Assembly (NCBI GenBank): GCA_951406725.2
Contig: OX597830.1
Span: forward strand, 48,298,001-48,362,000
Direction: 5' to 3'
Source of the DNA: Octopus vulgaris
Taxonomy: Eukaryota
DNA length: 64,000 nucleotides
The notes under the pieces are model-generated. The model was not told where the DNA came from and made no database searches. It saw only the letters and a list, made by a program, of their open reading frames with translations. Below, in pieces: positions 7,873 to 55,652 of the stretch (its first letter is position 1; each line of letters opens with the position of its first letter). A program made the translations under genes and the position numbers.

Positions 7873-7903
7873 ATGTTGAGGAGGAATTATCTTCGAATTA
7901 TTT
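7873..7903 (+). CDS. PAN-domain gene copy A, coding exon 1 (MLRRNYLRII, start of signal peptide)
   Basis: ATG at 7873, 10 codons + 1 nt, then GTAAGT donor at 7904; conserved in copy B (43130); joins in frame to the next exon to give a basic N-region plus hydrophobic core. Confidence 0.8.
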
Positions 7904-11461: not shown

Positions 11462-11497
11462 TTCTCTTCTACATCTCACTGACATTTGGAAATGGAC
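11462..11497 (+). CDS. PAN-domain gene copy A, exon 2 (FLFYISLTFGNG, rest of signal peptide)
   Basis: tttcattgcAG acceptor, 36 nt, GTAAGT donor; phase 1-1; identical in copy B (47085-47120). Confidence 0.85.
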
Positions 11498-12055: not shown

Positions 12056-12313
12056 TTGAATATCTGAAGTATTTTATGAAAGTACCAAACTGTGCTCTGA
12101 AAGACGGTAAAACATTGATGACACTTGACCTGGACGCCTTCAACTGTTCGAAGAGTTGTTTTGAAACTTCTGCATGTAAATCCTTCGTGAGCAGAACGAT
12201 AAGTCCAAGCTGTATTTTATACGAAGAAGACTCAACAGAGAGGATGCTAATAAGTGAATATAATACCCATTTTTATCAGTTGAGAAGATCTGTGCCGACC
12301 AAGTATAGAGACG
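12056..12313 (+). CDS. PAN-domain gene copy A, exon 3 (PAN/apple-like domain 1)
   Basis: ttacAG acceptor, 258 nt, GTAAAC donor; encodes C-x3-C-x5-C-x-SF...C-x-L pattern (CSKSCFETSACKSF...SCILY) typical of PAN/apple domains. Confidence 0.9.
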
Positions 12314-16098: not shown

Positions 16099-16396
16099 CT
16101 TTATTATAATTATAAGAAAACTTACAGCTTATTTTGCTGGGTATGATGGAAAGTGTCAGCTGTCCACAAGCAGCGGACTAAGGTGACACATATTTACTGG
16201 TCATGCTTCAAGGACCCTGCGAAGAATTCTTGTAGTTCCAAGCAATGCTGATTTTTGTAGGCGTTCTACCTTCACACTTGCACCGATCTTTTTCAGCCAT
16301 GCTGGTAAGTTAGTGCTGATACTTCCAAGTGCATCAATTATCCTGGGTATCACGACTACTCTCCTCATTAACCACAACATTATTATTATTATTATA

Positions 16397-19300
16397 CAGT
16401 AGTTTTATTTTAATAGCGTGCTTTCACTTCACTACCGAGCGCAGCTCTGTGTGCCTTGGGTATGTGCTGTGATTTGTTGTGATGCTCTGATGGTTATTGT
16501 ATGGAAAGTGTTCTGCGTAGGATGTGTGCAGTGCCTAGTAGTGCAATTTTCTGTATGTTATATGTGTTTGTAAGTCCTGGTGTTTTTGTTATGTATTTGT
16601 CTGAATATTTTTTTATCATGCCTAATGCACCTACTATGATAGGAATTGTTTCCGTTTTCAGATTCCACATTCTAGTTACCTCTATTTCCAGGTCTTTGTA
16701 TTTTGAGAGTTTCTCCATTTCTTTTAGAGACACGTTGTCATCTGCCGGTATTGATACATCAATTAGAAAGCTTTTTTTTTTCTTCATGATCTCTGACAAC
16801 TATATCTGGTCTGTTGGCCTTAATTATTCTATCTGTGTGTATCGGCATATCCCAGAGTATGCTTGCTTTCTCGTTTTCTGTGACCTTTTCTGGTGTGTGC
16901 CTATACCATCTTTTTACTGTTGTTATTCCATAATGTTGGCATAGCTTCCAGTGTATGTAGGTTCCAACTCTGTCATGTCTGTGAATATATTCCTTCTTAG
17001 CCAGGACTGGGCAGCTAGAGATAATATGATTTATTGTTTCTTGTCCATCTCCACATATTCTGCAGTTACTTGTAATATTTCTTTTCATTGCATGTTTTTG
17101 GTAATTTCTGGTGGGGAGGCTTTGGTCTTGTGCTGCAAGTAAGAATCCCTCTGTTTCTGCTTTGAGTCCTGAGCTTCTCAACCATTGCTGGGATTTTTCT
17201 TTGTCTATTTCTTTTGCGTTTAGTTTAGTGCAGTATTTACCATGAAGGGGCTATTCTTGCCATCGTTTTATCATGGTTCGTTGCTGTTCTATTTTTAGTT
17301 TGGATTTCATTTGTTTTATAGCTTTTGTTGTTTCTTCATCATCTCCTTCTTCTTCTTCGTGTTTATTAGGTGGTATGATTTCTTGTTTGTATTTGTCAGC
17401 TTCCTTAAATACTGAGAACAGTTTTTTGTTTTGCTCGTGTTTTGCTTCTATCTGGATCAGTTTTCCTTCCTTCTGAAGTAGGTATTTTTGCAGTCCTATG
17501 GTGGTTATTTTATAGTAGTTCTCCAGCTGTATAAGGCCTCTACCACCTTCTATACGTTGTATATATAGTCTTTCTATGTCAGATTTTGGGTGATGCATCC
17601 TAGATCCTGTCAGTATTTTTCTTGTTTTCCAATCTATTTTGGACAGTTCATTTCGTGTCCAGTTAAGGATATTGTAGCTGTAACTTATAACTGGGACAGC
17701 TAAAGTGTTGATACCTATTATCTTTTTTTTAGCATTGAGCTCTGTTTTTAGTATTGATCTAACTCGTCTATAATATTCTTTTTTTATTTTCTCTTTCATT
17801 TATGTGTGTTGTGTCTTATCTAGTTCATGGATTCCTAAGTATTTGTAAGTTTGGCTTTGGTCTAATTCTTTTATTTCATCGGTTTTATCTAGTGTGATGT
17901 TGCTACTCTTAACTAGTTTTCCTCTTTTCATGGTTACTTTGGCGCATTTTTCTAATCCAAATTTCATATCTATTTCTTTGGTAAATCCATGAACTGTCTT
18001 TAATAGTGTTTCCAGCTGTTTGTCATTATATAAAAGGTGGCTGATCGTTTTGCCGTAACATTTATATCCGCATCCAGTTCTATTTAGCATATCAGATAGA
18101 GGTGACAGTGCCAAGCAGAAAAGGAGTGGAGAGAGTGTGTCTCCTTGGAATATTCCTCTTCTGATGGGGATGTCTTTGGTTTTCATGAGTCCCTCTTTTG
18201 TTTGGAGGTGTAGGACTGTTTGCCATTTATTCATAGGGTGCTCTATGAATTTTATGATTGTTGGTGCTACTTTGTTAATGGCTAGTGTTTCAAGGATCCA
18301 CGTGTGGGGGATGCTATCAAACGCCTTTTTGTAGTCAATCCAGGCCATACTGAGGCCTTTCTTCTTTCTGTGGCTGTCTTCAGTTACGGCTTTATTAATC
18401 ATTAGTTGATCTTTACAGCCATATGAGCCTTTGCGGCATCCTTTCTGCTCTTCTGGGAACAGTTTGTTTTCGTCCAGTTGCTTGTTCAGCCTTTGCGATA
18501 TCACTGCAGTAAATGCCTTGAACATAGTAGGGAGGCAGGTTATTGGTCTGTAGTTTTCTGCTTTTGCTGTTTCATTTGATTTGGGAATTAAGATGGTTTT
18601 CCCCTTCGTGAGCCATTCAGGCATTGTCTCTGGCTCTGCTAGTATGCTGTTAAAGTTTTCAGCCAGCTTTTTGTGCATTCCTGTTAGATATTTCAACCAG
18701 AAGTTGGGGATCTTGTCATGCCCAGGTGCCTTCCAGTTGCTTAGTCTTTGCAGTGCCTGGGTGACCTCTTCAGTTGTTATGGGGGTCCAAAGTTGTTCAG
18801 ATGCCGAGTTTGTTATTTTGATACTCCTTTTTTTGGCTGTTCGTTCGCCGACCATATTTCTCTCCAGAATTCTTCCAATTCTTCTGCCGTTGGTGCTGCA
18901 GTGACTTCTATTTTATTTTTTCCCAGATCTTGGTAGAACTTTTTGGGGTTGGTGTTGAACTTTTTGTTCTGTTCAAAGAAGCGTTGGCGTTTCTCGTACC
19001 GGCGGATCCTTTGAGCTTTGGCAAGGATATCTTGCTTCAGCTTTTCTTTTATCTCCGGCAAATCATTTTCTGTGATGTTATATTTGCGGAGCATTTTTGT
19101 TCTCTTTTTGTTGCTCAGTAGCGTTGATTGTTTGCTGATTTCGTTAAGAATCGACAGGTCTTTTCTAATTTTTTTTATTTTGTTTTGGATGTTATTTATC
19201 CACAGGGTTTGTTTGGGTGGTGGTACTCCTGTTTGGGCGGGTTTGGGTGAGTATTCAGCTTCTTTTGTGGCTGCAGTGGCTGCTGCGTATATCAAGTCAT

Positions 19301-19443: not shown

Positions 19444-19517
<74 letters not shown>

Positions 19518-19520
<3 letters not shown>

Positions 19521-20303
19521 TAGTTTTATTTTTATAGCGTGCTTTCACTTCACTACCGAGCGCAGCTCTGTGTGCCTTGGGTATGTGCTGTGATTTGTTG
19601 TGATGCTCTGATGGTTATTGTATGGAAAGTGTTCTGCGTAGGATGTGTGCAGTGCCTAGTAGTGCAATTTTCTGTATGTTATATGTGTTTGTAAGTCCTG
19701 GTGTTTTTGTTATGTATTTGTCTGAATATTTTTTTATCATGCCTAATGCACCTACTATGATAGGAATTGTTTCCGTTTTCAGATTCCACATTCTAGTTAC
19801 CTCTATTTCCAGGTCTTTGTATTTTGAGATTTTCTCCATTTCTTTTAGAGACACGTTGTCATCTGCCGGTATTGATACATCAATTAGAAAGCATTTTTTT
19901 TCTTCATGATCTCTGACAACTATATCTGGTCTGTTGGCCTTAATTTCTCTATCTGTGTGTATCGGCATATCCCAGAGTATGGTTGCTTTCTCGTTTTCTG
20001 TGACCTTTTCTGGTGTGTGCCTATACCATCTTTTTCTCTGTTGTTATTCCATAATGTTGGCATAGCTTCCAGTGTATGTAGGTTCCAACTCTGTCATGTC
20101 TGTGAATATATTCCTTCTTAGCCAGGACTGGGCAGCTAGAGATAATATGATTTATTGTTTCTTGTCCATCTCCACATATTCTGCAGTTACTTGTAATATT
20201 TCTTTTCATTACATGTTTTTGGTAATTTCTGGTGGGGAGGCTTTGGTCTTGTGCTGCAATTAAAAATCCCTCTGTTTCTGCTTTGAGTCCTGAGCTTCTC
20301 AGC

Positions 20304-20305
<2 letters not shown>
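19518..20305 (-). mobile_element. Same LINE family, short 3' copy
   Basis: near-identical 3' end and RLE domain; flanked by (TAA)n. Confidence 0.9.
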
Positions 20306-20388
<83 letters not shown>

Positions 20389-20567: not shown

Positions 20568-21875
20568 GTTCTGTCGGTCAGTACCTATTTCTTTAATACC
20601 CACAAGCGGCTAAACATAGAGAGGACATACAAACGGATTAAGTCGATTATATCGACCCCAGTGCGTAACTGGTATTTAATTTATCTACCCCGAAAGGATG
20701 AAAGGCAAAGTCGACCTCGGCGGAATTTGAACTCAGAACGTAACGTTAGACAAAATACCTATTTCTTCACTACCCACAAGGGGCTAAACATAGAGGGGAC
20801 AAACAAGGTCAGACCTATGTATTAAGTCAATTACGTCGACCTCAGTGCGTAACTGGTACTTATTTAATTGACCCCGAAAGGATGAAAGGCAAAGTCGACC
20901 ACGGCAGAATTCGAACTCAGAACGTAACCGCAGCCGAAATACCTATTTCTTTACTACCCACAAGGGGCTAAACATAGAGGGGACAAAGAAGGACAGACAA
21001 ACGGATTAAGTCGATTACATCGACCTCAGTGCGTAACTGCTACTTATTTAATTGACTCCGAAAGGATGAAAGGCAAAGTCGACCACGGCAGAATTCGAAC
21101 TCAGAACGTAACCGCAGACGAAATACCTATTTCTTTACTACCCACAAGGGGCTAAACACAGAGGGGACAAAGAAGGACAGACAAACGGATTAAGTCGATT
21201 ATATCGACCCCAGTGCATAACTGGTACTTAGTTAATCGACCCCGAAAGGATGAAAGGCAAAGTCGACCTCGGCAGAATTTGAACTCAGAACGTAGTGGCA
21301 GACGAAATACCGCAAAGCATTTCGCCCGGCGTGCTAACGTTTCTGCCAACTCCCAGCTTTTCTGACGGTTAGTACCTATTTCTTTATTAACCACAAGGGG
21401 CTGAACATAGAGGGGACAAACATGGACAGACATAGGTATTAAGTCGATTATATCGACCCCAGTGCTTAACTGGTACTTAATTTATCGACCCCGAAAGGAT
21501 GAAAGGCAAAGTCGACCTCGGCGGAATTTGAACTCACAACGTAACGGCAGACGAAATACCGCGAAGCATTTCGCCCGACGTGCTAACGTTTCTGCCAACT
21601 CCCAGCTTTTCTGACGGTTAGTACCTATTTCTTTATTACCCACAAGGGGCTAAACACAGAGGGGACAAACAAGGACAGACATAGGTATTAAGTCGATTAC
21701 ATCGACCCCAGTGCGTAACTGGTACTTAATTTATCGACCCCGAAAGGATGAAAGGCAAAGTCGACCTCGGCGGAATTTGAACTCACAACGTAACGGCAGA
21801 CGAAATACCGCGAAGCATTTCGCCCGACGTGCTAACGTTTCTGCCAACTCCCAGCTTTTCTGACGGTTAGTACCT
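20568..21875 (-). repeat. Head-to-tail tandem array of six tRNA-derived SINE units
   Basis: units start about 20582, 20756, 20940, 21124, 21372, 21622; minus-strand B box gagttcaaattcc plus core gtcgactttgcctttcatcctttcggggtcg. Confidence 0.9.
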
Positions 21876-24835: not shown

Positions 24836-24868
24836 TTTATTACTATTATCATTATCATTATTATTATT

Positions 24869-26496
24869 CAGTAGTTTTATTTTTATAGCGTGCTTTCACT
24901 TCACTACCGAGCGCAGCTCTGTGTGCCTTGGGTATGTGCTGTGATTTGTTGTGATGCTCTGATGGTTATTGTATGGAAAGTGTTCTGCGTAGGATGTGTG
25001 CAGTGCCTAGTAGTGCAATTTTCTGTATGTTATATGTGTTTGTAAGTCCTGGTGTTTTTGTTATGTATTTGTCTGAATATTTTTTTATCATGCCTAATGC
25101 ACCTACTATGATAGGAATTGTTTCCGTTTTCAGATTCCACATTCTAGTTACCTCTATTTCCAGGTCTTTGTATTTTGAGAGTTTCTCCATTTCTTTTAGA
25201 GACACGTTGTCATCTGCCGGTATTGATACATCAATTAGAAAGCTTTTTTTTTTCTTCATGATCTCTGACAACTATATCTGGTCTGTTGGCCTTAATTTTC
25301 TATCTGTGTGTATCGGCATATCCCAGAGTATGGTTGCTTTCTCGTTTTCTGTGACCTTTTCTGGTGTGTGCCTATACCATCTTTTTACTGTTGTTATTCC
25401 ATAATGTTGGCATAGCTTCCAGTGTATGTAGGTTCCAACTCTGTCATGTCTGTGAATATATTCCTTCTTAGCCAGGACTGGGCAGCTAGAGATAATATGA
25501 TTTATTGTTTCTTGTCCATCTCCACATATTCTGCAGTTACTTGTAATATTTCTTTTCATTACATGTTTTTGTTAATTTCTGGTGGGGAGGCTTTGGTCTT
25601 GTGCTGCAATTAAGAATCCCTCTGTTTCTGCTTTGAGTCCTGAGCTTCTCAACCATTGCTGGGATTTTTCTTTGTCTATTTCTTTTGCGTTTAGTTTAGT
25701 GCAGTATTTACCATGAAGGGGCTATTCTTGCCATCGTTTTATCATGGTTCGTTGCTGTTCTATTTTTAGTTTGGATTTCATTTGTTTTATAGCTTTTGTT
25801 GTTTCTTCATCATCTCCTTCTTCTTCTTCGTGTTTATTAGGTGGTATGATTTCTTGTTTGTATTTGTCAGCTTCCTTAAATACTGAGAACAGTTTTTTGT
25901 TTTGCTCGTGTTTTGCTTCTATCTGGATCAGTTTTCCTTCCTTCTGAAGTAGGTATTTTTGCAGTCCTATGGTGGTTATTTTATAGTAGTTCTCCAGCTG
26001 TATAAGGCCTCTACCACATTCTATACGTTGTATATATAGTCTTTCTATGTCAGATTTTGGGTGATGCATCCTAGATCCTGTCAGTATTTTTCTTGTTTTC
26101 CAATCTATTTTGGACAGTTCATTTCGTGTCCAGTTAAGGATATTGTAGCTGTAACTTATAACTGGGACAGCTAAAGTGTTGATACCTATTATCTTGTTTT
26201 TAGCATTGAGCTCTGTTTTTAGTATTGATCTAACTCGTCTATAATATTCTTTTTTTATTTTCTCTTTCATTTGTGTGTTGTGTCTTATCTAGTTCATGGA
26301 TTCCTAAGTATTTGTAAGTTTGGCTTTGGTCTAATTCTTTTATTTCATCGGTTTTATCTAGTGTGATGTTGCTACTCTTAACTAGTTTTCCTCTTTTCAT
26401 GGTTACTTTGGCGCATTTTTCTAATCCAAATTTCATATCTATTTCTTTGGTAAATCCATGAACTGTCTTTAATAGTGTTTCCAGCTGTTTGTCATT
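24869..26496 (-). mobile_element. R4/Dong-like LINE, 1.6 kb 3' copy
   Basis: near-identical to 16397-18027; flanked by (TAA)n, directly upstream of exon 4. Confidence 0.9.
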
Positions 26497-26509
26497 ATTA
26501 TTATTGTTA

Positions 26510-26699: not shown

Positions 26700-28503
26700 C
26701 AAAAATAATAAAACTATACAACGTGAAACAGTTCCACCACCATTACGAAAAACTACAAACACAACAGTGATTTATTTATTTTCTTCTTCTTACAGGAAGA
26801 TGTCCTTTTGATTTTATTGACCTTGCTGGTATACCTTCAGAGAATGATTTGGGTAGATTTAATGACTGCAGTTACACGCAATGTCTGCTTCATTGCGAAG
26901 CAAAACCAAATTGCCAATCGTTTGACTATAGCTATAATTACAAAAGATGCTACTTGTCAACTATAGATCATAGAACTGCTGAATTGCATTTTTACAAAAA
27001 TTACATTTACACCGAAATAAACAGAGGTAAGGGCGTCATTTTCTTGTTTTTATTTATTTATTTTGTTGGAATTATACACAGGCAGTTAGACAAGACTAAA
27101 TCACCACCTTCCAAAATGTGTTAGACTGTTATATTTGAGGCCAATGTCATATAAAGGTACGGACTCAATACCAAATTAGATAGACAGATAGATAGAAAGA
27201 TAGATAGATAGATAGATAGATACATACATACATACATACATACATACATACATACATACATACATAAATGCATACATACTCGCATACATATATAGATGCA
27301 CGCATACATGCATACATACATGCACGCACACACTCATACGTACAGATAACTACTAAATAATCGATGAATAAAAGGGACAAAGATAGCACCAAACCTCCGT
27401 GCTGCGATGGAAAATGTTGGCTCTGCTATACCAGTGTGGAAGATGTCACCCACATCATCAGTAGTTGCGACAAAATGCCTACGAGATTCTACCTGCCCCT
27501 GAGGCATGATATAGTTGCAAAGACTATTTACGATGCTACCCATAGGAAGGACTGCTCGGACGTATACATCGAAGCCATGTTAGAACCAGCAAGTAATCAG
27601 ACCTTTTGAAAGCAAGGAATACTGGTGGAACTCCCCGCAAAAACAAACATCAATTCGGTACAAATATAGCAGACCTGATATTGCTCTGTGGTACAGGGGA
27701 AAAAGTCATGCATTGTTGTAGGGGTCAGCTGCCCAGAGGATGTGAATGTGCAATCAAAAGTCTTAGGAAAATAGAACATTTATGGCAAACTTACAGTTCT
27801 TGTACCCTGACCATAAAGTCTCGTTTGCACCTTTCATCAGAAGTGCATTAGATTATGTACCAACAATTTTGCACATTTGCAGAAAAACCTATAAATACTC
27901 GGTTTCACAGAGAAAGAGCTAAAGAAAAACTGACGCGGATTGTCAAATTCCAATGTTTTAGTGGCACAGTGAAGATTTGTAAAACATTCCCAAACTATTC
28001 CATCTGTGATTCTTAGGTGAATAGATGCACACGATTGAGTGTATGCATCGACAGTCCCACGAACTCAACCACACATTTGCAATCACCGGGAACTCACTCA
28101 TCTCAAAAACTCTTGTCGCTTTCTTACCGACTGTATGTTTATTGCATTCAGATGGCAGGAATTTTCTCCATTCGCTTCTTGCGTTGAAAGACAATTTGAA
28201 ACAGCGAAGTGTGTACAGACACAAAAGTATGCTTCAAACTGCGGACAGGCCAATTCTTTTAATAGAACCTGTCTTGAAGTCCAAGAACCAAGTCAGATTA
28301 TATGCCTGGGGAGACGCTATTACCTTTACGACCCTGTCTCTTTAAATTATCATCAAAACCCAGCAGCAACCGGGATTCTTTATTGAGGAGTTGTGGAGTG
28401 AAACGATTTGGTACCAGACTTTCCTAGAGAAAGGGAATTCATCACCTTTAAGGGACTGCATCAATCCCTCAACAGTGATGATGTTGACTGCAAAGGAAGT
28501 CAT
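26700..28503. repeat. Segmental duplication block, paralogous to about 60455-62440
   Basis: shared exon 4, tetranucleotide repeats and LINE fragments. Confidence 0.95.
26796..27026 (+). CDS. PAN-domain gene copy A, exon 4 (PAN/apple-like domain 2)
   Basis: ttcttcttcttacAG acceptor, 231 nt, GTAAGG donor; CLLHCEAKPNCQSFDY...RCYLS motif; phase 1-1, in frame with exon 3. Confidence 0.9.
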
Positions 28504-30442: not shown

Positions 30443-32337
30443 CACCATTATTATTATTGTTATCATTATTATTGATTTTGATATTTTAGAAGGACTAACG
30501 AACCTCTTCACAAAGATAAATAGACAATACGAAAAGCATTTCGTCCGGCGTGCTAACGATTCGGCTAGTCCGCCGCTTTAGCATTGCAGACAACATATTA
30601 AAATTAATTCCGATCGATTCTACACGCTTCTCTGAGCTGTTCCAGAAAAAAAATCATTTTTTCCAACTCCAATGCGGACTAATTATATTTGTAAGACATA
30701 TACACCGGACTCCTTACCAAGAATCGAAACCTCGGTCTTCACGCTTGTTTATATTGTTCTCGTCATTTGTGTTTATAATTCATTCGTTTTACCTATTTAC
30801 TTCGCCACCATTTTAGATGAGACAGGGTTTAATCTTGTTAACCCATTTCGTTCTATTGTCAATGGTCTGACTTCACTTTAGCACTGCAATAAATTCGAGA
30901 TACCAAGAGAAAAATATTATCTTTCCTCTGCAACTTCCAAACAGTTAACTATGGCACATTCCCGCGAGCTTTGCCCAATTTATCCCCTTCAAGTTAGGGT
31001 TCACTATTAACAACTACCATGGTAATAGATTATCCATCAAAACTAACTAAATTTTGTGTTTACTTCCCACTCGTCGCAGTTGCAGAACCGCGTAAGTAAA
31101 ATCTACAGTAAGTGTGAAATACCTTTCAGCAGTTCTTTGCAGTGCATCCAGAAATGTTATCTAAGCAATGCACAGTCTTTCGCCAACTTGTCACATCTCT
31201 ATGTGTTAAAAACAACTTGCTACATCGTGCCTGTAACGCCTTTCCCGTTACAATTATACTGTTATACATATAAAGACATGTTTGAAGTACATTTCGAAAG
31301 TATCTAGGATCTTTATAAACGTCTGTCCCTTCATATCTGAGGCCTTGTGTTATTACTAGAAATAACTGATAGTAAATAAAACTCAACATATATTAAAGAA
31401 GTAATGATTTCTTGTATAAAATCGTCTTATATAAATAGGGAAGTCGATTGTATTAAGGAGATTAGGATTTCTTGATTAATATTAAAGAAATCACGAAAGA
31501 TATTAAGACGATCAGAAGAATAAGAAACAATTTTTATTCCATTTCAGAACTTTGGAACGATTTCAAACAGTCAAATACACTGGACAAGATTAACTCTGTG
31601 GGATGTGGTATAATATTTTTCGACTCTTATTATTTCCTTGACAGTAAGACCCTCTTTTTGTTCATTTTTTTGTGTTTTTCGTTTCTGTTTCTGGTTTCTA
31701 ATCTTTATTAACTTGATCTCTAGTTCTTGCCACATTCATTGATCTCTAGTTCTTGCCACAAAAATTTAAAAAATAAATAAATATCTCATTCTCCTACATC
31801 AAATGAGTATTTCTACTTAGAAACTTAATTCTTAATTAAATATATTAACAGTAAATTGATGATTAATATTCATTCAAAAGGATGTTGTAAAACAACCCAC
31901 AAATACATTTAAAATCTGGCAGATGGATTAATATTAATCTCCGTTGTCATTAAAATTCTCAACACGCTTCCTTACTAATCTGCAAAGAAATACCTCAATA
32001 CATCTCGCCGGTAATACGAGAACCATTCTCCCTCCGAGATACCCATCAACATACCCCTTCTCATTATCCCGTCATACATGCTATTACAGCAACCAGATCA
32101 CATCCCGCATCAATTATTAATCCCAGTCCTTCCTTTCTAGATTATACAACATTCAGGTACTCACTCCCTACTCACACTAACCTAAAGATGTCTAAACGGA
32201 ACATGAATACAATCGATCTATCGAATCAATAGGCCCTATCTATTCGTTTCCTTTGTACTTTGTCAGATTAGAGCAATAATTTAAGTTATGCTCTTATATT
32301 TATTGTTTCCTCTTTCCATTTTTTTTTTCTATTGCAG

Positions 32338-32528
32338 AAAAAGAAACTAATGATTTGACAGCTTATTCAACATTTTCCTTCAAACAAAATCCAAATCTCT
32401 ACCTTATAACAGAGGCCCAAATGGATGCTCACTCGGTTCTGGATTGTTCCCGTTTATGTATGATATCTTCTACATGTACTGCCTTTTCATATACTAACAC
32501 TAAGTGCCTACTAAAGAAACTGAGCTGA
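32338..32528 (+). CDS. PAN-domain gene copy A, terminal exon 5a (PAN-like domain 3, ends KKLS*)
   Basis: polypyrimidine + attgcAG acceptor; phase 1; EKETNDL...SVLDCSRLCMISSTCTAFSYTNTKCLLKKLS-TGA; absent from ORF track. Confidence 0.8.
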
Positions 32529-32968
32529 ACTTTAATTGAATTCACCCCAAACTTACTTACTTGTCCATGAATTGTGAGCAAGACTTCAACGGATCACGTT
32601 TGCTAACCTATTTTGCTTATTTTTTTGTGTCCTTTTTCCTTTTTCTTGTTTCTCATCTTTAATTCATTGATCTTCTGTCTCCATTTCTTGTCGAAAAAAT
32701 AAGAGAAATTAATGTCGCTCTCTTCTTCATCGCATTATTTCTTCTACTTAGAGTCCTAATTCTTAGTTAAATATATTTACAGTAAATTTATAATTCCTCT
32801 CCCCGAGATACTCAGCCACATGCCCCTTCTCCCGTCATACATGCTATTACACCAATCTGATCACATCCCGCATCAATTATTATCCCCAATCCTTCCTTTC
32901 TAGATTTTACAACACTCAGGATCTAACTCCATACTCGCACTACTCTAAAGATGTCCAAACGGAACATT

Positions 32969-32974
32969 AATAAA
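32969..32974 (+). terminator. Candidate polyadenylation signal for terminal exon 5a
   Basis: AATAAA between the 5a stop and the 5b acceptor; the equivalent position in the upstream repeat unit is not AATAAA. Confidence 0.35.
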
Positions 32975-33097
32975 ATCGATCTATCGAATCAATAGTCCAT
33001 ATCCATTCGTTTCCCTTGTACCTTTCAATGAAGAGCAATAATTTCATTTATGTTGTTATATTTCTTGTGCTTTCTCTTGCTTTTTTTTCTATTGCAG

Positions 33098-33288
33098 AAA
33101 AAGTAATTAATGATTTGACAGCTTATTCAAATTATTCCTTCAAACAAAATCCATATCACAATCTTATTACCGAGACCCAAATGCATGCTCACTCGGTTCT
33201 GGATTGTTCCCGTTTATGTTTGATATCTTCTACATGTACCGCCTTTTCATATACTAACACTAAGTGCCTACTAAAGAAACTGATCTGA
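33098..33288 (+). CDS. PAN-domain gene copy A, duplicated terminal exon 5b (PAN-like domain 3, ends KKLI*)
   Basis: same acceptor context; EKVINDL...SVLDCSRLCLISSTCTAFSYTNTKCLLKKLI-TGA; AATAAA at 33400. Confidence 0.8.
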
Positions 33289-33399
33289 ACTTTAATGGAA
33301 TTCACCCAAACATTACTTCTCCATAAATTGTGAGCAAATCTTCAACGGATCACGTTTGCTAATAATAATTATATAAGATAAAATGTGTGTTTCTTTGTG

Positions 33400-33405
33400 A
33401 ATAAA
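33400..33405 (+). terminator. Candidate polyadenylation signal for terminal exon 5b
   Basis: AATAAA about 110 nt after the stop, followed by T/GT-rich tract (33421-33440). Confidence 0.55.
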
Positions 33406-34039
33406 ATCAATTTAATTCAGTTATTTTTTTTGTTGATTTATTTCAATTGCTAACGTTTTTCGTTCTAAATTAGTCTTCTCTTAGAACATGATTGCTAATT
33501 TGAGTTTTAGCTCTGGTCTCTCGGTAACTATTTAAGCCGGCTGATCTAAACTGCTTTTATTAAGGATTATAAAGCGAAATTAAAATAAGAATCTTTTCTT
33601 TTTCTCTTTGGACGAAATTTTGTGTTTCAGCAACTTATAAGTACAGGTTAAACGAAGAATAGGTTAAACCAAAATACGAAATCAATTATACGGAAAACGA
33701 AATCTAATAGAAATTTGATCGTAAACTCAGAAGCCCCACGATTTCTTTCAGGTTATCGAAAAGTTAAAATAGCTTTTTGCTGTGAAAAACATAAATTGCA
33801 ATGCTGACCATACATGTCGTAAAATGTTCCTTTTGTTTTCATTTGTTTAGTTTTGGATTAATATTGGATTCTTTGTTTATAGTTTCTTGAAGAGGAGAGG
33901 TGGTGGTGGACATTGTCTTTGCAAGTCTTTATGGATTGGTGAGATCGATACGGTTAATGCTTAGTTTGAAGATTTGTGTGTCGACATCTGTTGGGAAAAT
34001 TGGATCAGGGATTGCATTTCAGGCGATTAATGTTCTGGA

Positions 34040-35510
34040 GCAGTGGATACCCAATCGCTGTGTTGTAGCCCAGTCAGCATAAGTTTTAAAAAAGCACGGG
34101 CAAAAATTTTAAATAAATAATAATTTGACTTTTGATTTAATAAATGAAATTTGAAGTCAACTTCTCAACGTGATTGAAAATCACAAATAAATAAAACGTT
34201 GGCACCGTCTAATATAAGTCATGAAAATACGAACTCCTCGAAAGGGATTCTCTTTTCGTTGTTGTGTCGCAAAACGAAGGAAGATGTCTTTAAAATTCAG
34301 GTTTTCATCACGCCATTTATTCATTATACTTGGGCATAAATTGTCCGGTTTATTGTCTACCACGGATCTCGCCTGATAAGACTTTATCCTCTACAGATTG
34401 AGAAAGTATTCATTCATAGACTGCCGTGTGCTTACAGGCAGTGTTACGTCTTCTTGCAGCAGTTCGATCAGTTCAATCGAGGAATCCGTAGAGAGATTCA
34501 AAATCTCAAGTAAATAGGTGAAATTGATCAAGATGTGTCACTTCCACCCGATGCGTCGCTTTGCAGAGTGGCATTCAGACCACACCAGGGCCTCTAAATT
34601 TAGTTGAAATGTATCTGCTATGAATTTGAGACAAACAATGTTCAGAAACTGGAGCATTTACGGATTGAGATAAGAGAGGTTTATCATGATATCACCATTT
34701 TATGCCGAAAATTGGTGTCGGAACTCTAAGCAACTCTGGTTCAATATAGGGATGACGGTCTCAAGGTGTAAATTGATGAAAGGTGCTCTATTAATTTTCA
34801 GCCGACTTTAAACATTCTCACTGACCGATGAGACCCGCCTGCTGTGGAGATTTTCCCCGTAGATTAGGTATCTACCGAGTCAGTGGGTTGATCTTAATAA
34901 CTTCACTGATGTGTTACTTAATCGGAGACTACAAAACTTTCTTTTCGTTTGACATGAAGATGTTTAACTGGATATCATTCCAGTTACTGTAGTCACAGCA
35001 GTGAAGATTTGTAATATTTTTGCTAAAGACTTGATTCGTATTAAAACTTGTTTAGAGGAGACGAAAGCGCAAACTTTCATAGACAATCGTAATAGAAGCA
35101 CTTGTCTTTAATTTGCCTCTCCCATGACTTGATAACCTCACTGAAATGAGGTAGGATATCCATAATGAAGTAAAGCTCATAATGAACAACATAGCACGGT
35201 CCCTGCTGACAGACCCATCGTGTATAGGAGAAGATTTTCTTCTCTGCTGGTTGTCCTCGTTTTTCTTCCTGTAAGCACTTGTTGTACTGAGGCAGTCTGA
35301 ATCGATCCATAAACAGTTAAAGTTGCTTTTGTATGACTAAAAATTCCCCGATAGCCTTTACATTTTTGTTAAGAAGTTATCTACATCTAGGTTCAGTTGG
35401 TGGAAGCTGACACAAGTTGCAGATGGGGCTGCGACAAGCAATTTCGCTTGAACACCAGCGATTCCTCCGCTCATGACAGTGGCACCATCATAACTATTTG
35501 TGAACATCAA
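34040..35510 (-). mobile_element. Degenerate hAT transposase fragment
   Basis: YDGATVMSGGIAGVQAKL...HQLNL motif. Confidence 0.65.
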
Positions 35511-40440: not shown

Positions 40441-41349
40441 TGGGACCTTCTTACAGATCTTATCTCCAAGATTGTGAGTGGTATTTTCCCCTAGCACAAT
40501 AAGTCGTCAGACGAACTAAAATTCTTTTTTTTTTAAATTAAACGGTGTCAAGATGTTTTCTAAATTGGATCTCTCTGACGCGTACCTACAAATTAGAGTA
40601 GACGATGAATGCTCTAAATACATAACAATTAACACACAGGAAAGACTGTATAAATACAACAGGTTACAATTTGGCTTAAAAGTCACGACAGCAATTTTTC
40701 GACAGATTTTGGATGCAATATTAGCGGACTGTGAATTTTTACCTCCATACCTGGATAATATAATCCTATAAAAAACGATTCCAGGGATCAACACGTAGAA
40801 CACGTAAGATATGTACTCGAAAAAATTAGATTATTACGGCCTTATTTGAATGAACCGATTAATAGTTGATCCAAATATACCACCGGAAATGTCACCCGCA
40901 GAACCGATGTTTGCTAGAAAGGTCACATCCGTCTTTGATAAGTTGATACCGAGTGAAAATTAAAAACAAAGGCGAACAACAAAATTACTTCAAAATTCTT
41001 CTACTTTGGTGACAAAGTTTTACTTAAAACCTATAGATATGGTAAAGAAAACTGGGAAGATGGTGTAATGATTAAACAAATTGGAAAAATGTTATTACTG
41101 GTCGGAGAGAGGTGAGGGAGACTAATTCTTAAAAGAGAAGATGTTATGGAAAGATTCTGACCACCTACCATGTAACTGAAGGTGGTCTGACTCATTGTTA
41201 TAAAATAAAGAACTGTGAGCGATTGGCAGTTCAAGTTGGTAAGCAGTTCACTGTGAGCTGTGATTAAGAGCGTTGAATCTCAGGTAATAGTAATTGTAGC
41301 GAGAAGTTGTTAAATTATATATCGAACACAAGGATATAAAATAATATTA
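40441..41349 (+). mobile_element. Ty3/gypsy remnant with PPT and 3' LTR (paralog of 5911-6457)
   Basis: RT motif; purine tract aaaagagaaga followed by TG at 41141 and LTR ending ...attaCA. Confidence 0.75.
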
Positions 41350-42473
41350 CATGCAGATGACTCGTTGCAAATAGATCAGATTGTTTGCAGCAGCGACGTT
41401 TCTGTCGTAGAAACTGAGCATTTGTTTCATGATATTCTAAAACAACACGCATGAAGCATGGACCTGAGAGTGAAAGACACCTGAGAGGATGTTGCATGGT
41501 GAACAGACAATGTCAAAGAAGATTCCTAGCGAATTTCTTGAAGAAACATGAGCCAATGGCAATGGTTATCCATGCTACAGGTGACGCCAAGATGGGACAA
41601 TGCAAGTTATTAAAGTTCATAATAGGTGTCTAGTCCTCAATAGAAAGGACCAATGTCGTACTTTCAAAGCGCATGTAAATATGCAAATATGTCCGACTAC
41701 CAAGTCAATGAAATACATATTCAAGTAACTCTATAAATGCTACAAAAACATTAATTTTAATATAAGTAAAAGGAAGATGGACGTTGAAGTTGTACATGAT
41801 GAAAATATATAACAGATCCCATACTGTTATACTCGCTGCCAGTGCAACAGCAAGAATCTGTCTTTTACAGAGAAAGTAATGAGAAAGAAGCGTTAGAGAG
41901 AGAGAAGAGCTGCCCGTTGTAACACGCCTCTACCATCATGGTTTGTCCTTAGTAAATACAAGACGCCGGTTGCATATTGATATTCCTTATCATTATGTGT
42001 GTGACAAAGGGATGACTGTTTGGAAAGTACACGAGAGATGAGAAGAGAGAATTATTTCAAGACTTTAGTTTCCAAATCCAAAGCAAAAAGAAATATTTTA
42101 TCTGAGATTGTTATTGTTACATGTTGAAGGAGCTCGTATTTTTTGACGATCTTAAAACAGCTGATATTGTGCGATATGAGTTGGCATGAAATAGATGTCA
42201 TCGTTTTAATAACACAAGTGGAAATATACTTTATAAATGAGTGCGACCCTTTAGTTTCAACTCACAGCGGGAAATGTCACATTTAAGAATTATTGGAATT
42301 TAAAAAAAATGAAAAACGCCGAAGTCTTTAGATACGAAATTTATCAATGGTTGCTTTCATAGTTTTTGATAAAGTTGCTGGTATTTTTGTGTAGTAGTAT
42401 AAACATGCATACGCATACACATGCAAAAGCACACACACATACACAGACACAGACAACCACACATATGTATATA

Positions 42474-42564
<91 letters not shown>

Positions 42565-42707
42565 GTTGAATGAATTATCCTAGTATGGATAATTCGGTTA
42601 ACCGATACCCGGGTAGCAAATTCACGTCAGAGAACATATGTCGAGAATAAAGGAATTTTGTTAAATCGTCGTTTGACTCCATTCTTTCATTTATATATAT
42701 ATATATT

Positions 42708-42778
<71 letters not shown>

Positions 42779-42779
42779 G

Positions 42780-42818
<39 letters not shown>

Positions 42819-42823
42819 GTATG

Positions 42824-42877
<54 letters not shown>

Positions 42878-43129
42878 ATGCATGTATGTATGTATGTATC
42901 ATCTGGTGATCTTATGCCATCTCAATCGTTAAGTCAATACCTTTTCACCCGGAGTATCTTTATAAAGTGTATTGAATAGATACAAACACTTCAGTTGTGG
43001 AATACAATGCCACCTAATAGTGATAAATCGATACGAAGTTCATATAACGATTATCCTTCATTAAGAGGATAAATTCAAACAAGTAACATCTCGCTCTTGA
43101 CAGCCATTTCTACCTTGAAAACAGAAAGA

Positions 43130-43160
43130 ATGTTGAGGAGGAATTATCTTCAAATTATTT
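43130..43160 (+). CDS. PAN-domain gene copy B, coding exon 1 (MLRRNYLQII)
   Basis: paralog of 7873-7903 with GTAAGT donor at 43161. Confidence 0.8.
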
Positions 43161-45104
43161 GTAAGTAAATGTTTTATTGTATTATTAATATACGCTTTTA
43201 TTTTTTAAGAGTTTAGCCATCGCGCCTGAGACCCTACAAGAACACACTTTATATATATATGAGTTCAGATGAATATGGTACTTATGTTGAGGGACCAGAA
43301 TTTATTACGGTATTATCTATACAATTTCAAAGTAAGGTGATTAAAATCAAATTATGCAACAAGGATAATCAAAAGTAATGCAATTTTCTTTTACTCTCTC
43401 TATTTTGGTAAACCTTTGGTATATAACGTAAATCCTCGAGTATATCCGCATTTTTTTTCCTAAAATTTAAAGGTCAAAATACCTAGTGCGTACTGTATAC
43501 GAGGTTAAAAATGAAAACTATTTTCTAAGCTATGTCCGAGTCTCTATTTGCTGTCTGGCTATGTTTATTCAGACGCATTTTGTGATGTCGGGCGTGAAAA
43601 TACCTTAAGCTAAACCTGAAAGCAATGAAGTCATAAAAGAATCATCCATAACTTGCAGTAAGCAACATTTATTAAACGTTATTACTGTTATTTCTTTATT
43701 TTCTGCAAACAAAATGCACAAAAAAAGCTACACGTTCGCACAATGTTAGATATACAATAATAATAAAAGACATTACCGTATACATGTTTACAAACCAAGG
43801 ATGTTATATAGACCTCCTTGACTCAAGTTAGAGAAGGAGTGCATATTATACACAAGGTTTAGGTTTTTCAGAGGTACAGCACCCCCTCCCAAATCCCCTG
43901 CGTTTTATACTCAAAGACGGACTATACTCGAGGAGTTAAGGTACTCCAAATATTCAAAGAAGTTTTATCCTTATATTAAAATTTCATTCTTAATAATCTT
44001 CTTGATTACCCTAAATTTTAACTTTATACAATAAGACAATATTGTTTGAAAAGATCTTTAGAAATTACTTGATTTATCTCTTTCTTAAATGGCTCTATCC
44101 TCCTGATCTTAGTATTTACAAGGGCCTTTATATAAATAACCCTTCTAAACAAGTACAACTAAGAAACTATAAATATCATGAAGGAAGTAACAATATTAAC
44201 TTCATAAATCTATGATATAACCCTTTATTTAGAAAAAAAGATTAGTGAAAAATATGATTGTTCCATAACTTAAATATTCTTTTAGGTGACATCAAACATC
44301 AGACTTTTATTGATATTACCTAAATAAGTAAATATATAAATTTTAGTCTAATATATTTTGAATTATTATACTTTTTTCTAAAAATCTTCTCTATTGGTGT
44401 TAATAAGCTACATATACATTACCATAAGTTTTAGTAATTAAGCTATTTTATTTCCTTTTCTATGGTGTTTTGCCCTACTTGATCATTTTATTGTATTTCT
44501 TAATTATATTATAATTAGCCTTTATTTATAAAATTAATTTATTTTTTGTATCTCTATAAATTCATACTATACTGGTATATTCATTACGTATAAAAAAACC
44601 TGCTTAGATTATAATTTTCTTTATATATAATTAACATGTTCCTTTGCCTCAATACTCCTTTATTAATACCTGTTTATACCAATTAATCAATTTTTTATTC
44701 ACCACTGAGTACCACAAGGAACAATCGTCATGTGGCAATATCTTAATAATGCTACATGCAGGTGACCCGTTGACACAACAATAATTCTCAATGAAGAGAG
44801 ACGTTTGCATAACCAAATTCCTGCCAAAATGAAAGACTGCGGTGCGTGGAATCAATTTTAGGGTTTACAAATAAATGATCCTTCGTATTCCTTCTTGTTA
44901 CTCCAACTTATGCAATTATACATGTATGTATGTATATGTGTATGTGTTTTTTTATATGTATGCACATATATATACACATGAGTATACATATATATTAAAA
45001 TGAATATCCATATATGTATGTATACATACATTCATACATACACACATACACACATACATACATATGCATACATACATGCTTATATATATATACATATATA
45101 TATA

Positions 45105-45435
45105 GGGAAGCTTTATGAAAATAGACAAAAGACGAAGGCAGGTTTACGGAAATAAACAAAAGACGAAGGCAGGTGGAATACAAACAAACAATTGTATTAG
45201 TATGGCGCTCAGGAATATAAATAAAACTAGTCTTTAACGTTTCGAGCCTACGCTCTTCAACAGAAAGATACACAGAGAAAAAACACAGAAAGAAGGAGAG
45301 AAAAAAAATATGCGTGCAGAGGCTAGCGAATCAACATGGCGATCTGATTTCGGCCAGAAGTCAAAGATCAAACGTGAGACGCAAGAGCGAAATTAGGGGA
45401 GATAATAGGGTTAAATGACCTCGCTCCAACATAAG
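45105..45435 (-). mobile_element. Penelope-like terminal repeat; inverted homolog at about 55800-56035
   Basis: same sequence in opposite orientation; contains hammerhead-like ctgttga-agagcgtaggctc-gaaacgtta with non-canonical core. Confidence 0.5.
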
Positions 45436-45554
45436 AGTGTGTGTGTATGAGAAGAGTGTGTGTGTGTGTATGAGAGAGTATTAGTGTGTATGAGAGGTCA
45501 GGACGTGTGTATGTATATATGATGTGATGTGTAAAGTCGTATGGTGTAGTGTAG

Positions 45555-45895
45555 AGAGAGGAGATGAGGGAAGAGGGAGGGGAGGGGCGGGGCGGGGGGG
45601 AGAAATAAAGGGGAGAAGATGGGAGGGGAGAAGGAAAGGGGAGAAGAGGAGGTGGAAGGGGAGAAGGAAGGAGAGGAGAAGAGGGGAGGGGAGATGAGGA
45701 GGGAGGATAGAGGGAGAGGGGGAGAGAGAGAGAAGGGGAGTGAGGGAGCAGAGAGAAAGAGGGAAGGGGAAGAGGGAAGAAGGGAAGAAGAGTAGGGGTG
45801 AAAGGATGAAGGCCTGAAGAGAAGGAGGGGTCGGGGGAGGTTAGATGAGGAGGGGGGAGAGGGGGGTTAGATGAGGAGGGGGGAGAGTTGAGACC
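45555..45895 (+). repeat. Purine-rich (GA/GGA) low-complexity tract
   Basis: almost exclusively G and A for about 340 bp. Confidence 0.85.
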
Positions 45896-47084
45896 AAATG
45901 GCGTATATATATAAAATGGGTGAATATTAACATGACCTAAATCTTCTGAACTATGCCTATCCCTTGTCCAGTGAGATCAAAATTAATCAGGGATGGTTGG
46001 TTGTTACTAGACTCCACGACACTCACCCTCAGTGTTCGTTGGTTGTCACTCATTTCCACGACACTCACTCTCTTGAGTTATTGCCTATTTTATGCCATCT
46101 CTATTACTTAAATCCAACAAGACTATTTTGAATCGTTGTGTAAAAGTCTGTTTGTTTAGTATGGAAGAATTAGTTAATATAAATTTTATGTCGTAACTCT
46201 CTACGACAATTTTCTTTGAATTCTAAATGTACTGTAAATATTAAATGTACATAAATAAACTAATTTAGTAAATAATTTCTCTTTCTTCCTTTTCTTCAAC
46301 CTGTTAATGAGATTTATTTCTGCATCCATGAAACTGTTATTATAGCGGTGACCTTTCAACATGTACGTTTCAGCGTCTTGGTGTATAATTCATCACGGTG
46401 TTTACGCAGCCTGAGTTAAGATTTATGTATAGTGGTAACACTTATAGTTATGTTATAAGTGAATGGTTTATCACCATAGAATTCTACTCAGTAAACATCT
46501 ATATTTATTATCTTTTCCAAGTCAAAAATACTCTACACCAGATAATCTAACACAACCTTATATATTGGTGACAAGCCGACGTGGACTTAGAAAAGTCTAC
46601 TCAGGACAATAATCACTCTGTAAATAAGATAGAATCAACCCGTTATAAAAGTGGTAACTCGCCTTTATAAAAAGTATTACGAGCAAGTTATACGTAATAC
46701 TTTCACTAAAGTCTCTGAAGTGTCTAGAATGTTCTCTTCCAAGAAATACTGATGCTTCTGATCTCGTTTGAAACAAATAACATTTCTTTTTCTTTCTTCC
46801 TCTTTTTCTATTTTTGCTCCTCTCTCTTTTTATCTCACCCTCACTCCTCCTATCCCTCTCTCTTCTGTTCCCTCTCTTTCTACCCCTCTCCAATTTGTCG
46901 CACTCCCTCATTATTTCAATGGATAATTTTATGGTGATGTAGTGGTGGTCATCGCCGTATTTGTTACTGAATTATGCTTGTAGCACTTCTCTTTCATATT
47001 CCTTTCATCTTCATTCTTTGTAAATTAATGCTAAACGTGAATATGAAATATTCAATTTTTTTCCAAAATAAATTTTCGTTGCAG

Positions 47085-47120
47085 TTCTCTTCTACATCTC
47101 ACTGACATTTGGAAATGGAC
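47085..47120 (+). CDS. PAN-domain gene copy B, exon 2
   Basis: ttgcAG acceptor, 36 nt identical to copy A exon 2, GTAAGT donor. Confidence 0.85.
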
Positions 47121-47676
47121 GTAAGTAAATTTATATCAAAATATAGACATATATCTATGAAAATTATGAAAATCACTACTCAAAACTTTAATTTATAAGT
47201 TCAGTGGAAGAAAATATTTTCCTTTCCTAAGTAAATTAGATGAAAAGAAAACTCAAGATAAATCTCGTATTATGACGAATTCAATTCTTAACATAATTTC
47301 CATTGGTAATAATTCAGTTTTCCGTCAGCTTGTAAGCATTTTGTTAAATAAAACAAAGTGCTGGTATTAGGGGACATTCTTTACAACAGACAACCGTTAA
47401 ACATTATAGTATATAACTTGTGAATCATTTAAATAATAGAATTAATTAAACAACATTTAAAACTCATTCGCAGTCATTTTCATTAAACAGATTATATATC
47501 CCAAGATCTTTGTACCTACACTATGGTAGTAACAACTCTATCACTTCTTCCTGGTAAAAATATCAATGCTGATCCTCAAACATTTAATATTCTCTATCTT
47601 TATTATTATCTATTTTCACAATGTTTTATTTTCGTCTTCGTATTTTGGTTGTTTAATTTGCCTGGCTTTGTTACAG

Positions 47677-47934
47677 TTGAATATCTGAAGTATTTTATGA
47701 AAGTACCAGACGCCGGTCTGAAAGATGCCAAAACATTGATGACACTTGACGTGGATGCCTTCATCTGTTCGAAGAGTTGTTTTGAAACTTCTGCATGTAA
47801 ATCCTTCGTGAGCAGAACGATAAGTCCAAGCTGTATTTTATACGAAGAAGACTCAACAGAGAGGATGCTAATAAGAGAATATAATACCCATTTTTATCAG
47901 TTGAGAAGATCTGTGCCGACCAAGTATAGAGACG
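47677..47934 (+). CDS. PAN-domain gene copy B, exon 3 (PAN domain 1)
   Basis: ttacAG / GTAAAC splice sites, 258 nt open frame, 7 aa differences from copy A. Confidence 0.9.
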
Positions 47935-48119
47935 GTAAACAAATTTGAATCGTTTTGTGTTTATTTCATTCCTTGACTTGTATTCTATGTTTTAGTCCAA
48001 AGAGAGACAATACTATCGGCATTTGAAAATTGTCTGCGATTTCTCTGGTCGATGTAGATTAACGTGTGTTGGAAAATAATTGTTTGTAGAGTTAAAGTTA
48101 TAATAAAGTTTTGAGTGAT

Positions 48120-48460
48120 TTATTTCTACGCTGTACCTTGAAAAACAGCCGCAAGAGAGGTAAGCTCTGTTCATTGTGCAACAACATGAATCAAGTCAAT
48201 TCCATCAGGAATCATCACAGAAATGTTATGATTTATACAGAAGGTGGAACATGTAGAGATTCCCATTTGGTGTATGCGGCAGAATGCACGAAACACAATT
48301 CAACTTATGTTCGTTGCACAACAGAACAATTAAACAAAATATTTAATGGACACAAATAGGATTTCAGACACAATAACAGTAGTTCGACAGAAGTTGCTGA
48401 ACATTTTTCTTCAAACGGCTGCAATTTTGAAGAAGATTTGAAAGTGCATATTCTCAGTGA
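48120..48460 (+). mobile_element. Penelope-like GIY-YIG endonuclease fragment
   Basis: CSLC...VYAAECTKHNSTYV..T...L...FNGH pattern. Confidence 0.6.
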
Positions 48461-48499
48461 ATATTCTCAATCTTCTTCACTTTCACTTCTCAAAGTGCA

Positions 48500-49320
48500 T
48501 GAGCTTACACATAGATTGGCAAACAAAATATTGAGTCCTTCTGGCATAGTACCGTTCTTCCTATTGTCATCCAGGCCATTATTTGGATGTCACTATTCGG
48601 TACTTCGTCCATCTGTCTCGTAGTTTTCCTGTACAGTGTTGTCAAGTTTTTAAGCCAAAAGCCCTGAACCCCATCTGGGCCAGGTGCTTCCGGATAGGAA
48701 TTTTCCTGCACTGATCTCTAATCAGCTCGGTTATTCTCAAATTCTTCTGCTGATACTCTCCATTCTCCTCTTTGAGTCTCTTTAACCACTCTGCTTCAGT
48801 TTCGTGTCGTTTCTCCTGAGACTATATGTTTGAATCGAAACTTTTGCTTTCTTCAGCATCCGGAACGGCTTTTTCACCCTTTTCTTTCCCAGTTCCTGAT
48901 AGAGTATTTTCTGATTTTGTTCGAAAAGTCTGTTTAATCTGTACTGCTCAATTCTTTGTTCATATCACTTTAGTTTATGTGCTTTAGCTTCCAACCTCTG
49001 TTTTAATTCCTCAATCATATCATTGATTCCCTTTCTCTTCACCCTATACCTCCTCTTTAGCACAACATATTTCACTCACTGAACTTCATTTCTCTTTTTC
49101 CGTTCCAAAATATTAACATGGTTTCTGGTCTCGTTTATAGACTGCGTTATTATCCTTCTCCACCTTCAGGTTACGTTGACATTTACCTTTGGCTTTCAAA
49201 TCTATCTTCCGGGCTATAAATTTCGAGATTGCATTTATCAGATTGTTGGTGTCCTGACATCACCGATGATATCATTTATCTTCCTGACCCATTCATTGAG
49301 TTTCATTCTGTCTACTTTTT
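48500..49320 (-). mobile_element. Old RLE-LINE RT fragment
   Basis: APGPDGVQGFWLK motif. Confidence 0.65.
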
Positions 49321-49899
49321 AAAACATTATTAATATATATTATTAATGTCATTATTATTATAATTGTTGTTATTGTTAGTATTATTATTCATATACACTC
49401 AATAGATAAGACTGCTGGAAAAGAAAATAATTCTAACATCGGGCTCGCACAAGTAGCTTTAGATAGCAAGAACCTTCCTAAGTATGCTAGCTTTCTTCAA
49501 TGACACTTTTCTGCAGCTGCACTATACTGGGTTTTATGCCTATTTCATCTCTCCATCTGTTCAGAAGAGAAAAACCTAAGCCACACAAACACACAATATG
49601 AAAACTAATACAACAGGATCAAACAAAACCCCATAACAAAACATTATCCCGCCCCCACAAAAACATGCAGCACGCACCACCCCACCAGCACAATGTTGCA
49701 ATAGAAAGTTGCTTGAAAGTTTCAGATGTCGAACATTAATAGTGGTGATGACGATGGTGACGAACGTCACCTTACCTCAGTTTATGAGAGACAGGAGTTT
49801 CGGAAGAAACTCAGATTGTAACAGCGAAAATGAAGCTGGTCCTTTAAGGGACGGCCTCTCGCTTGGCGGTGGATCAGTAAAGATGCAGACTGACCACAG

Positions 49900-53580: not shown

Positions 53581-53698
53581 ATTAAAACTAAAAGTATAAA
53601 AGTGAAACAATATATCATATAACAATATAGATGTTAGGTTCATAGGTATATATCTACATATATACATATACATGGATACGTATACACACATATACATA

Positions 53699-54968: not shown

Positions 54969-55007
54969 TACATATGTATATACGTACATATACATATGTA
55001 TACATAC

Positions 55008-55042
<35 letters not shown>

Positions 55043-55114
55043 CATATAATCACACACACATGTATATATATATATACACATACATATAATCACACACACA
55101 TGTATATATATATA

Positions 55115-55650: not shown

Positions 55651-55652
55651 TA

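Follow-up and report, generated by a model that had tools for sequence, protein, structure and literature searches.

Two intact last exons from two paralog lineages in a three-PAN-domain gene of Octopus vulgaris

On contig OX597830.1 of Octopus vulgaris, a gene for a protein with three PAN/Apple domains ends in two consecutive and intact terminal exons, which raises the questions of how such a pair arose and whether both members are used. The window analysed here is a stretch of 64,000 nucleotides (positions 48,298,001 to 48,362,000 of the forward strand); coordinates below refer to it unless preceded by C17, which marks contig positions. A preliminary description of this DNA had taken the pair for an in-place tandem duplication that offers an alternative choice of last exon and thereby a further layer of diversity.

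The focal gene, with all its features on the + strand, consists of six exons, all intact, and with either last exon the joins are open and the product has 280 residues and 16 Cys. The coding part of exon 1 (7873..7903) begins with the ATG, likely the start of a signal peptide, ends in a GT donor and joins openly to exons 2-6, the same N-terminus being present in annotated Octopus relatives. Exon 2 (11462..11497; 36 nt, AG/GT ends) encodes a hydrophobic stretch and is present in 14 genes of the cluster; judged by eye, this hydrophobic N-terminus suggests that the protein would be secreted. Domain 1 is encoded by exon 3 (12056..12313, AG/GT ends), domain 2 by exon 4 (26796..27026), which is hypervariable among paralogs, and domain 3 by either of the last exons, 6a (32338..32528) and 6b (33098..33288). 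When these four exons were submitted to Pfam PAN_1 (PF00024), whose curated cut-off is 21.4 bits, all four passed, with scores of 23.8, 34.8, 24.9 and 25.0 bits for exons 3, 4, 6a and 6b, respectively. No convincing open reading frame of another gene was found on either strand.

The gene belongs to a family of at least 28 Octopus loci, each with three PAN/Apple domains and all on one contig (C17: 44.8, 47.9-48.4, 57.0-57.2, 68.7 and 79.2 Mb). The genome search gave at least 30 copies of the last exon (30 of 30 candidates returned), 17 of them in a 0.5-Mb cluster round the window, where they make up 15 loci in both orientations, and 13 elsewhere on the contig. A doubled last exon is observed at two of the 28 loci, the focal gene and a paralog, P, at C17:48.00-48.02 Mb. 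Copy B (window 41077-61000), which the preliminary description proposed to check for the same doubling, is a paralog whose six exons are intact and whose last exon, of the beta type defined below, is single; its exons 5 and 6 lie just past the window end, at C17:48365144-48365936.

Between domain 2 and the last exons lies one more exon, which was exposed by aligning the contigs of sequencing run X1 to 31500-34300. Exon 5 (31548..31643; 96 nt, phase 1-1, one Cys) is defined by a contig joint 31643>32338 over a GT..AG intron and by its homologues. Because it precedes both last exons, the pair is 6a and 6b with a shared donor at 31643, and the earlier numbering (5b for the second exon), which overlooked this exon, needs replacing; likewise, the junctions proposed at first, 27026>32338 and 27026>33098, would skip these 96 nt, the relevant ones being 31643>32338 and 31643>33098. 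All 28 loci have a homologue of exon 5 ahead of the last exon (96 nt at 25, 87 nt at two and broken at one), and it is found in all five further cluster members checked. In ten annotated Octopus relatives, the exon lies between domain 2 and the last exon in four and within other models in two; one (P0001) is modelled without it, and three end or diverge earlier. The exon 4>5 junction of the focal gene is predicted from these relatives, and skipping of exon 5, which would be in-frame and is how P0001 is modelled, may also occur.

As to the pair itself, the first account was accurate. The two exons (32338-32528 and 33098-33288) are each 191 nt long and lie 760 bp apart; each follows a TTGCAG acceptor in phase 1, stays open for 62 codons, encodes four Cys and ends in TGA at the matching position. 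The 16 nucleotides at which they differ change 14 codons, 11 of them non-synonymously and 3 silently; 9 of the 11 lie within codons 2-29, and 6b carries an NYS sequon. In their first 40 nt, 6a and 6b are distinct at several positions both from one another and from paralogs. The AATAAA hexamers at 32969 and 33400 were also correctly placed, the former lying ahead of the 6b acceptor. Both acceptors are of family quality, with 19/22 pyrimidines, that of 6b being pyrimidine-rich as in single-exon copies. The resulting layout is that of alternative last exons, with one shared donor and two neighbouring homologous terminal exons, equal in length and frame, both of which have a stop of their own and an acceptor that looks functional. 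Since the 6a and 6b units are ~86% identical across 581 nt and both exons pass the PAN_1 cut-off, their resemblance is beyond chance.

However, the two exons do not share their nearest relatives. Intron 5 occurs in the family in two types, alpha and beta, the latter with a ~180-nt deletion. Exon 6a follows an alpha intron (31644..32337), nearest to alpha paralogs and carrying the ~180-nt segment absent from beta (31861-32040, found only in five alpha copies), whereas 6b follows a beta intron. A tree built from 20 of the family's 30 units, of which 16 come from the cluster (its broken copy excluded) and four are distant, separates alpha from beta with support of 99/99, placing the 6a unit with alpha single-exon genes and the 6b unit with beta ones. 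Moreover, the nearest neighbours of successive segments are alpha genes from exon 5 to the 6a UTR and beta genes from 32607 onward, at 92-98%; the copy nearest to 6b is the beta paralog C17:47962717, at 97%. The gene thus changes from one paralog lineage to the other at a defined breakpoint. An alignment of 30 copies shows that the 6a 3' UTR is truncated (32529..32606), ending ~35-45 nt short of the position that the poly(A) signal has in the family. At 78 nt past the 6a stop, it meets beta intron 5 right behind its GTAAGA donor, in a non-homologous join (32606..32607) with a one-base overlap. The sequence that follows (32607..33097) is a beta-lineage intron 5 devoid of its donor, 92-96% identical to single-exon beta paralogs; in its first part, the 6b unit resembles beta genes at 95-96% and reads as beta intron directly behind the donor.

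Only two of 40 scored matches span this join, the focal gene itself and C17:48022038-48022178 in P, which is 90% identical there. P lies ~308 kb away and differs from the focal gene by 2-8% in every segment, the identity being 96.3% for 6b, 92.0% for its intron and 96.1% for the flank. Because the same breakpoint is present only in these two loci, 2-8% apart, a single join event that was later duplicated accounts for both. The two 6b copies are nevertheless rejected as sisters (AU test, p-AU 0.012), which suggests, on phylogenetic grounds, a later exchange of 6b with beta single-exon genes. The converse possibility, that the beta single genes popped out of a doubled gene, was rejected: among beta genes whose anchor is readable, the sequence right behind the donor mostly corresponds to the 6b start and not to that of 6a. 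C17:48090812 may be a recombinant of this pop-out type. Also, two DNA joints, 31670>32643 and 31651>32611, were discarded as alleles of the focal gene, their layout being that of beta single-exon paralogs.

The join has a direct consequence for the end of the transcript. Of the 26 single-exon copies, 25 have an AATAAA downstream of the stop, 102-123 nt from it in 24 and 19 nt in the broken one; both 6b copies have one there as well, and neither 6a copy does. In the focal gene, this family-conserved hexamer is at 33400..33405, 112 nt past the 6b stop, and 6a is without it because the join cut it off. A putative substitute for 6a is the AATAAA at 32969..32974, which had been listed as a candidate signal. 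It is not peculiar to this gene but is inherited intron 5 sequence: 14 of the 30 copies carry the hexamer at this position, among them 11 of the 26 single-exon copies, which would lose their last exon if it were used. Its downstream T content is 34%, as compared with 60% at 33400. Although inherited and not purpose-made, it could come into use in transcripts in which 6a has been spliced. The donor-less intron (32607-33097) is 3' UTR if the transcript is of the 6a type and intron if it is of the 6b type, and on a rough matrix of our own making every GT within it falls below the five true donors of the gene. A four-domain protein, in which 6a would be an internal exon spliced from a cryptic donor, was rejected by the same scoring, no GT in 32338-33060 scoring like the true donors.

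Run types were guessed, none being recorded as RNA among the 24 runs listed, and five of the seven runs used are RNA by this guess. In run X1, a 232-nt contig of depth 3 joins 31643>32338 over the GT..AG intron and matches 6a with 0 mismatches in 175 nt, the nearest paralog differing at 6; in this one depth-3 contig, 6a is spliced to exon 5 in RNA. The five RNA-guess runs consist of contigs only, at depth ~3, and none lies on 6b or on 31643>33098, which is evidence neither for nor against the use of 6b. A contig from X4, a second run of the study that produced X1, covers 32822-32976 with 1 mismatch (7 for the nearest paralog) and fits a long 6a UTR, but also an intron or DNA; its end at 32976 adjoins the hexamer, and as a single contig from one study it is not counted. 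Run X2 covers introns and may contain DNA. Contigs of runs X3 and X5 that fall on 6a were rejected as RNA of the focal gene, the five listed differences all corresponding to C17:48044171 and none to the focal gene; by their match to its last exon, C17:48044171 is likely expressed.

Our preferred reading, held with modest confidence, is that one recombination accident placed the intact last exons of two paralog lineages in a row, and that 6a is the exon spliced, with 6b being mostly UTR. The 3' UTR of an alpha gene would have been joined non-homologously to a beta intron 5 just behind its donor, either through a deletion between same-strand neighbours or through one-sided copying into a broken beta gene, two routes that intron 4 does not separate, and the chimera would then have been duplicated to give the focal gene and P. 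In most transcripts, the nearer acceptor, that of 6a, would win, and transcription would read on to 33400, at times ending at 32969, with 6b acting as 3' UTR that supplies the poly(A) signal. Some splicing to 6b may leak through, and the intactness of 6b would be due to its youth and to a likely continuing exchange of sequence with working paralogs. Against its role as a passenger, 6b keeps both its native acceptor and its native poly(A) signal, the pair that defines a single-exon terminal exon, and it could compete with 6a.

This last point leads to the strongest competing explanation, a tentative one that we nonetheless take seriously, in which the capture origin is kept and the pair operates as genuine alternative last exons: the transcript would take 6a and end at the co-opted 32969, or take 6b and end at 33400, giving two 280-residue proteins that are 11 residues apart in domain 3. 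The acceptors of equal family quality, the open joins with 16 Cys either way, the splicing of 6a, the native acceptor and signal of 6b with an AATAAA ahead of that acceptor, and the persistence of the arrangement at two loci 4-8% apart all agree with it. On the other hand, the 32969 hexamer is intronic in 11/26 single-exon copies and has the poorer T-rich tract, the amino-acid change between the exons is not in excess, the arrangement occurs in only 2 of 28 loci, and the 6b of P is without one codon. As for the choice of last exon put forward in the preliminary description, the layout permits it and one contig derived from RNA shows 6a in spliced form, but the inferences that were to support it (tandem origin, the 11:3 ratio and the 32969 signal) have failed or been weakened. 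A bolder version, in which a new alternative-last-exon switch is seen at its birth, with a dormant intronic AATAAA recruited for 6a and domain 3 produced in two variants, of which one has an N-glycan site of its own, within a fast-diversifying family of likely secreted recognition proteins, seems to us rather doubtful. The extra diversity supplied by 6b, presented earlier as a layer of its own, would be small next to the supply from paralogs, with at least 28 loci and a domain 2 that averages 60% identity.

The preliminary description had counted 11 residue changes to 3 silent codons between the exons. Of the 16 nucleotide changes, 12 are non-synonymous, as compared with an expected 78% (pN 0.079, pS 0.109, p=0.77), which is a neutral-like ratio. 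Over 60 codons, 6a and 6b differ by 10 residues; among 12 single-exon copies of the cluster, the median difference is 8 residues (1-13), and 23% of their pairs reach 10. The divergence is therefore within the range of ordinary paralogs, with no excess over neutral. At 9 of the 11 residue positions, both states are found in other copies of the family; the remaining two are private to 6b and create the NYS, which no other copy has there. The intactness of 6b is weak evidence in itself, since 81-53% of simulated exons remain open after 5-16 random changes, with all four Cys kept in 63-22%. In P, 6b has lost one codon between the last two Cys and exon 1 was not found; P, with this damaged 6b, may be dead as a whole. 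The changes private to 6b (2 non-synonymous and 1 silent, as compared with 25 and 6 over 24 single-exon copies) are like those of single-exon copies, a count with no power as a test of decay. Between the focal gene and P, 6b is more alike than its intron, which could reflect constraint, but not than the flank, and nothing indicates selection for 6b splicing.

We give little credence to a third explanation, in which 6b would be the main last exon and 6a a minor one, or the locus would be drifting towards loss: only 6b has the full native layout of a terminal exon and the cluster does contain broken copies, but the sole spliced contig uses 6a and the exons of the focal gene are all intact. Even less probable is that the last exon was duplicated in place, in tandem, and that the two copies then diverged adaptively. 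The direct-repeat layout, the ~86% identity and the 11 non-synonymous among 14 changed codons would all be expected from it; nevertheless, 6b comes from the other paralog lineage, and the AU test rejects both 6a and 6b as sisters (p-AU 0.00017) and a single clade of the four doubled copies (p-AU 1e-24). In addition, 9 of the 11 residue pairs are found elsewhere in the family and the ratio of changes is neutral. Heavy gene conversion after an old duplication could blur such a tree, which leaves this explanation a small probability. Finally, an assembly artefact, which the preliminary description named as a possible refutation and which a dense paralog cluster could favour, no read contig among those listed spanning the join with 31 nt to either side, is extremely unlikely because the same breakpoint recurs 308 kb away in the diverged P, with 10% differences across it and 2-8% per segment, and both units are unlike every other copy.

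The focal gene can be compared with three known kinds of system. Terminal exons can be included through alternative cleavage and polyadenylation, according to a passage of PMC5740500, and such alternative last exons have in common with the focal pair one donor, two downstream acceptors and separate stops; the pair differs in that 6a has lost its native poly(A) signal and use of 6b is a candidate only. Passages of PMC5740500 and PMC2257972 describe homologous neighbouring exons that come from tandem exon duplication and form mutually exclusive clusters. The focal exons are likewise homologous neighbours of equal length and frame, but they are terminal instead of internal, derive from two paralog lineages and show no long inverted repeat, a search for pairing elements that link the donor and the acceptors having found five short AT-rich ones. 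Tandem exon duplication was reportedly treated by Kondrashov and Koonin in 2001. Ectopic recombination in tandem families under birth-and-death evolution gives rise to chimeric genes. With such chimeras, the locus shares a mosaic ancestry, inverted and direct paralogs, broken copies and signs of conversion, and the focal gene likely arose as a chimera by recombination within a cluster whose genes turn over fast; the difference is that it keeps both last exons in a row and not as a swap. No paper on the Octopus three-PAN family, and none joining an alternative last exon with partial gene duplication, was found in a literature search that had subscription papers and supplements outside its scope.

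What the pair means depends on the use of 6b. If 6b is a passenger, the locus represents ordinary turnover of a tandem cluster and matters for annotation only, where one exon was missed and the second of the last exons misleads. With both exons in use, it would be a clean and datable case of an alternative last exon captured from a paralog, for which the 26 single-exon relatives serve as acceptor and poly(A) controls. The family itself offers the better prospect, with its at least 28 Octopus loci and hypervariable middle PAN domain. Among cluster copies, the mean amino-acid identity is 88, 60, 91 and 87% for exons 3, 4, 5 and 6, and the pooled dN/dS is 1.02, 0.94, 0.51 and 0.36, respectively (n = 14, 12, 14 and 15, copies of other length being dropped). 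In exon 4 (26796-27026 and its paralogs at C17 47.93-48.43 Mb), hypervariability goes along with a dS of 0.28 and conserved Cys, and to judge by these values PAN domain 2 looks like a diversifying binding surface. A protein search with exon 3 gave 10 of 10 matches in Octopus, the same search with exon 4 gave no match, and that with 6b gave six relatives, none identical.

The annotated Octopus apple-domain proteins XP_014769852.1 (O. bimaculoides), XP_036366256.1 and XP_036354797.1 (O. sinensis) have the same exon content, three PAN domains, a hydrophobic N-terminus and ~280 residues, and they are uncharacterized, with no function recorded. The structure model of a relative, which is weak (mean pLDDT 55.7), has as fold neighbours the Sarcocystis lectin SML-2, Toxoplasma microneme apple domains and prekallikrein/factor XI, at a weak TM of 0.2 that speaks to fold only and to no ligand. 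PAN domains are also reported from leech saliva in a passage of PMC7191736.

Several cluster members depart from the intact six-exon arrangement. The paralogs C17:48000557 (+) and 48100046 (-) have exons 2-6, exon 1 not being found; in both, the likeness of intron 1 stops at a common point ~400 nt upstream of exon 2, and each lies head to head with a complete gene. Just upstream of the window, C17:48296206 has an exon 4 broken by a 65-nt deletion, and the partial locus at C17:48385956-48391351 has the exon 4 seen at 48296206, together with a disrupted exon 5 and a shortened end of exon 6. At C17:48187292, the donor of exon 1 is AT and not GT, and C17:47967983 has an in-frame deletion of 15 nt within exon 4.

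Other repeats are also present in the window. A head-to-tail array of about six units of 184-249 nt occupies 20569-21875; the units belong to a common dispersed repeat, which from its look we take to be SINE-like. Intron 3 contains three pieces, retroelement-like by their look, that are 98-99% identical (16378-18029, 19486-20307 and 24837-26498), and three near-perfect tandem copies of 105 nt (99-100%) are found at 57224-57538.
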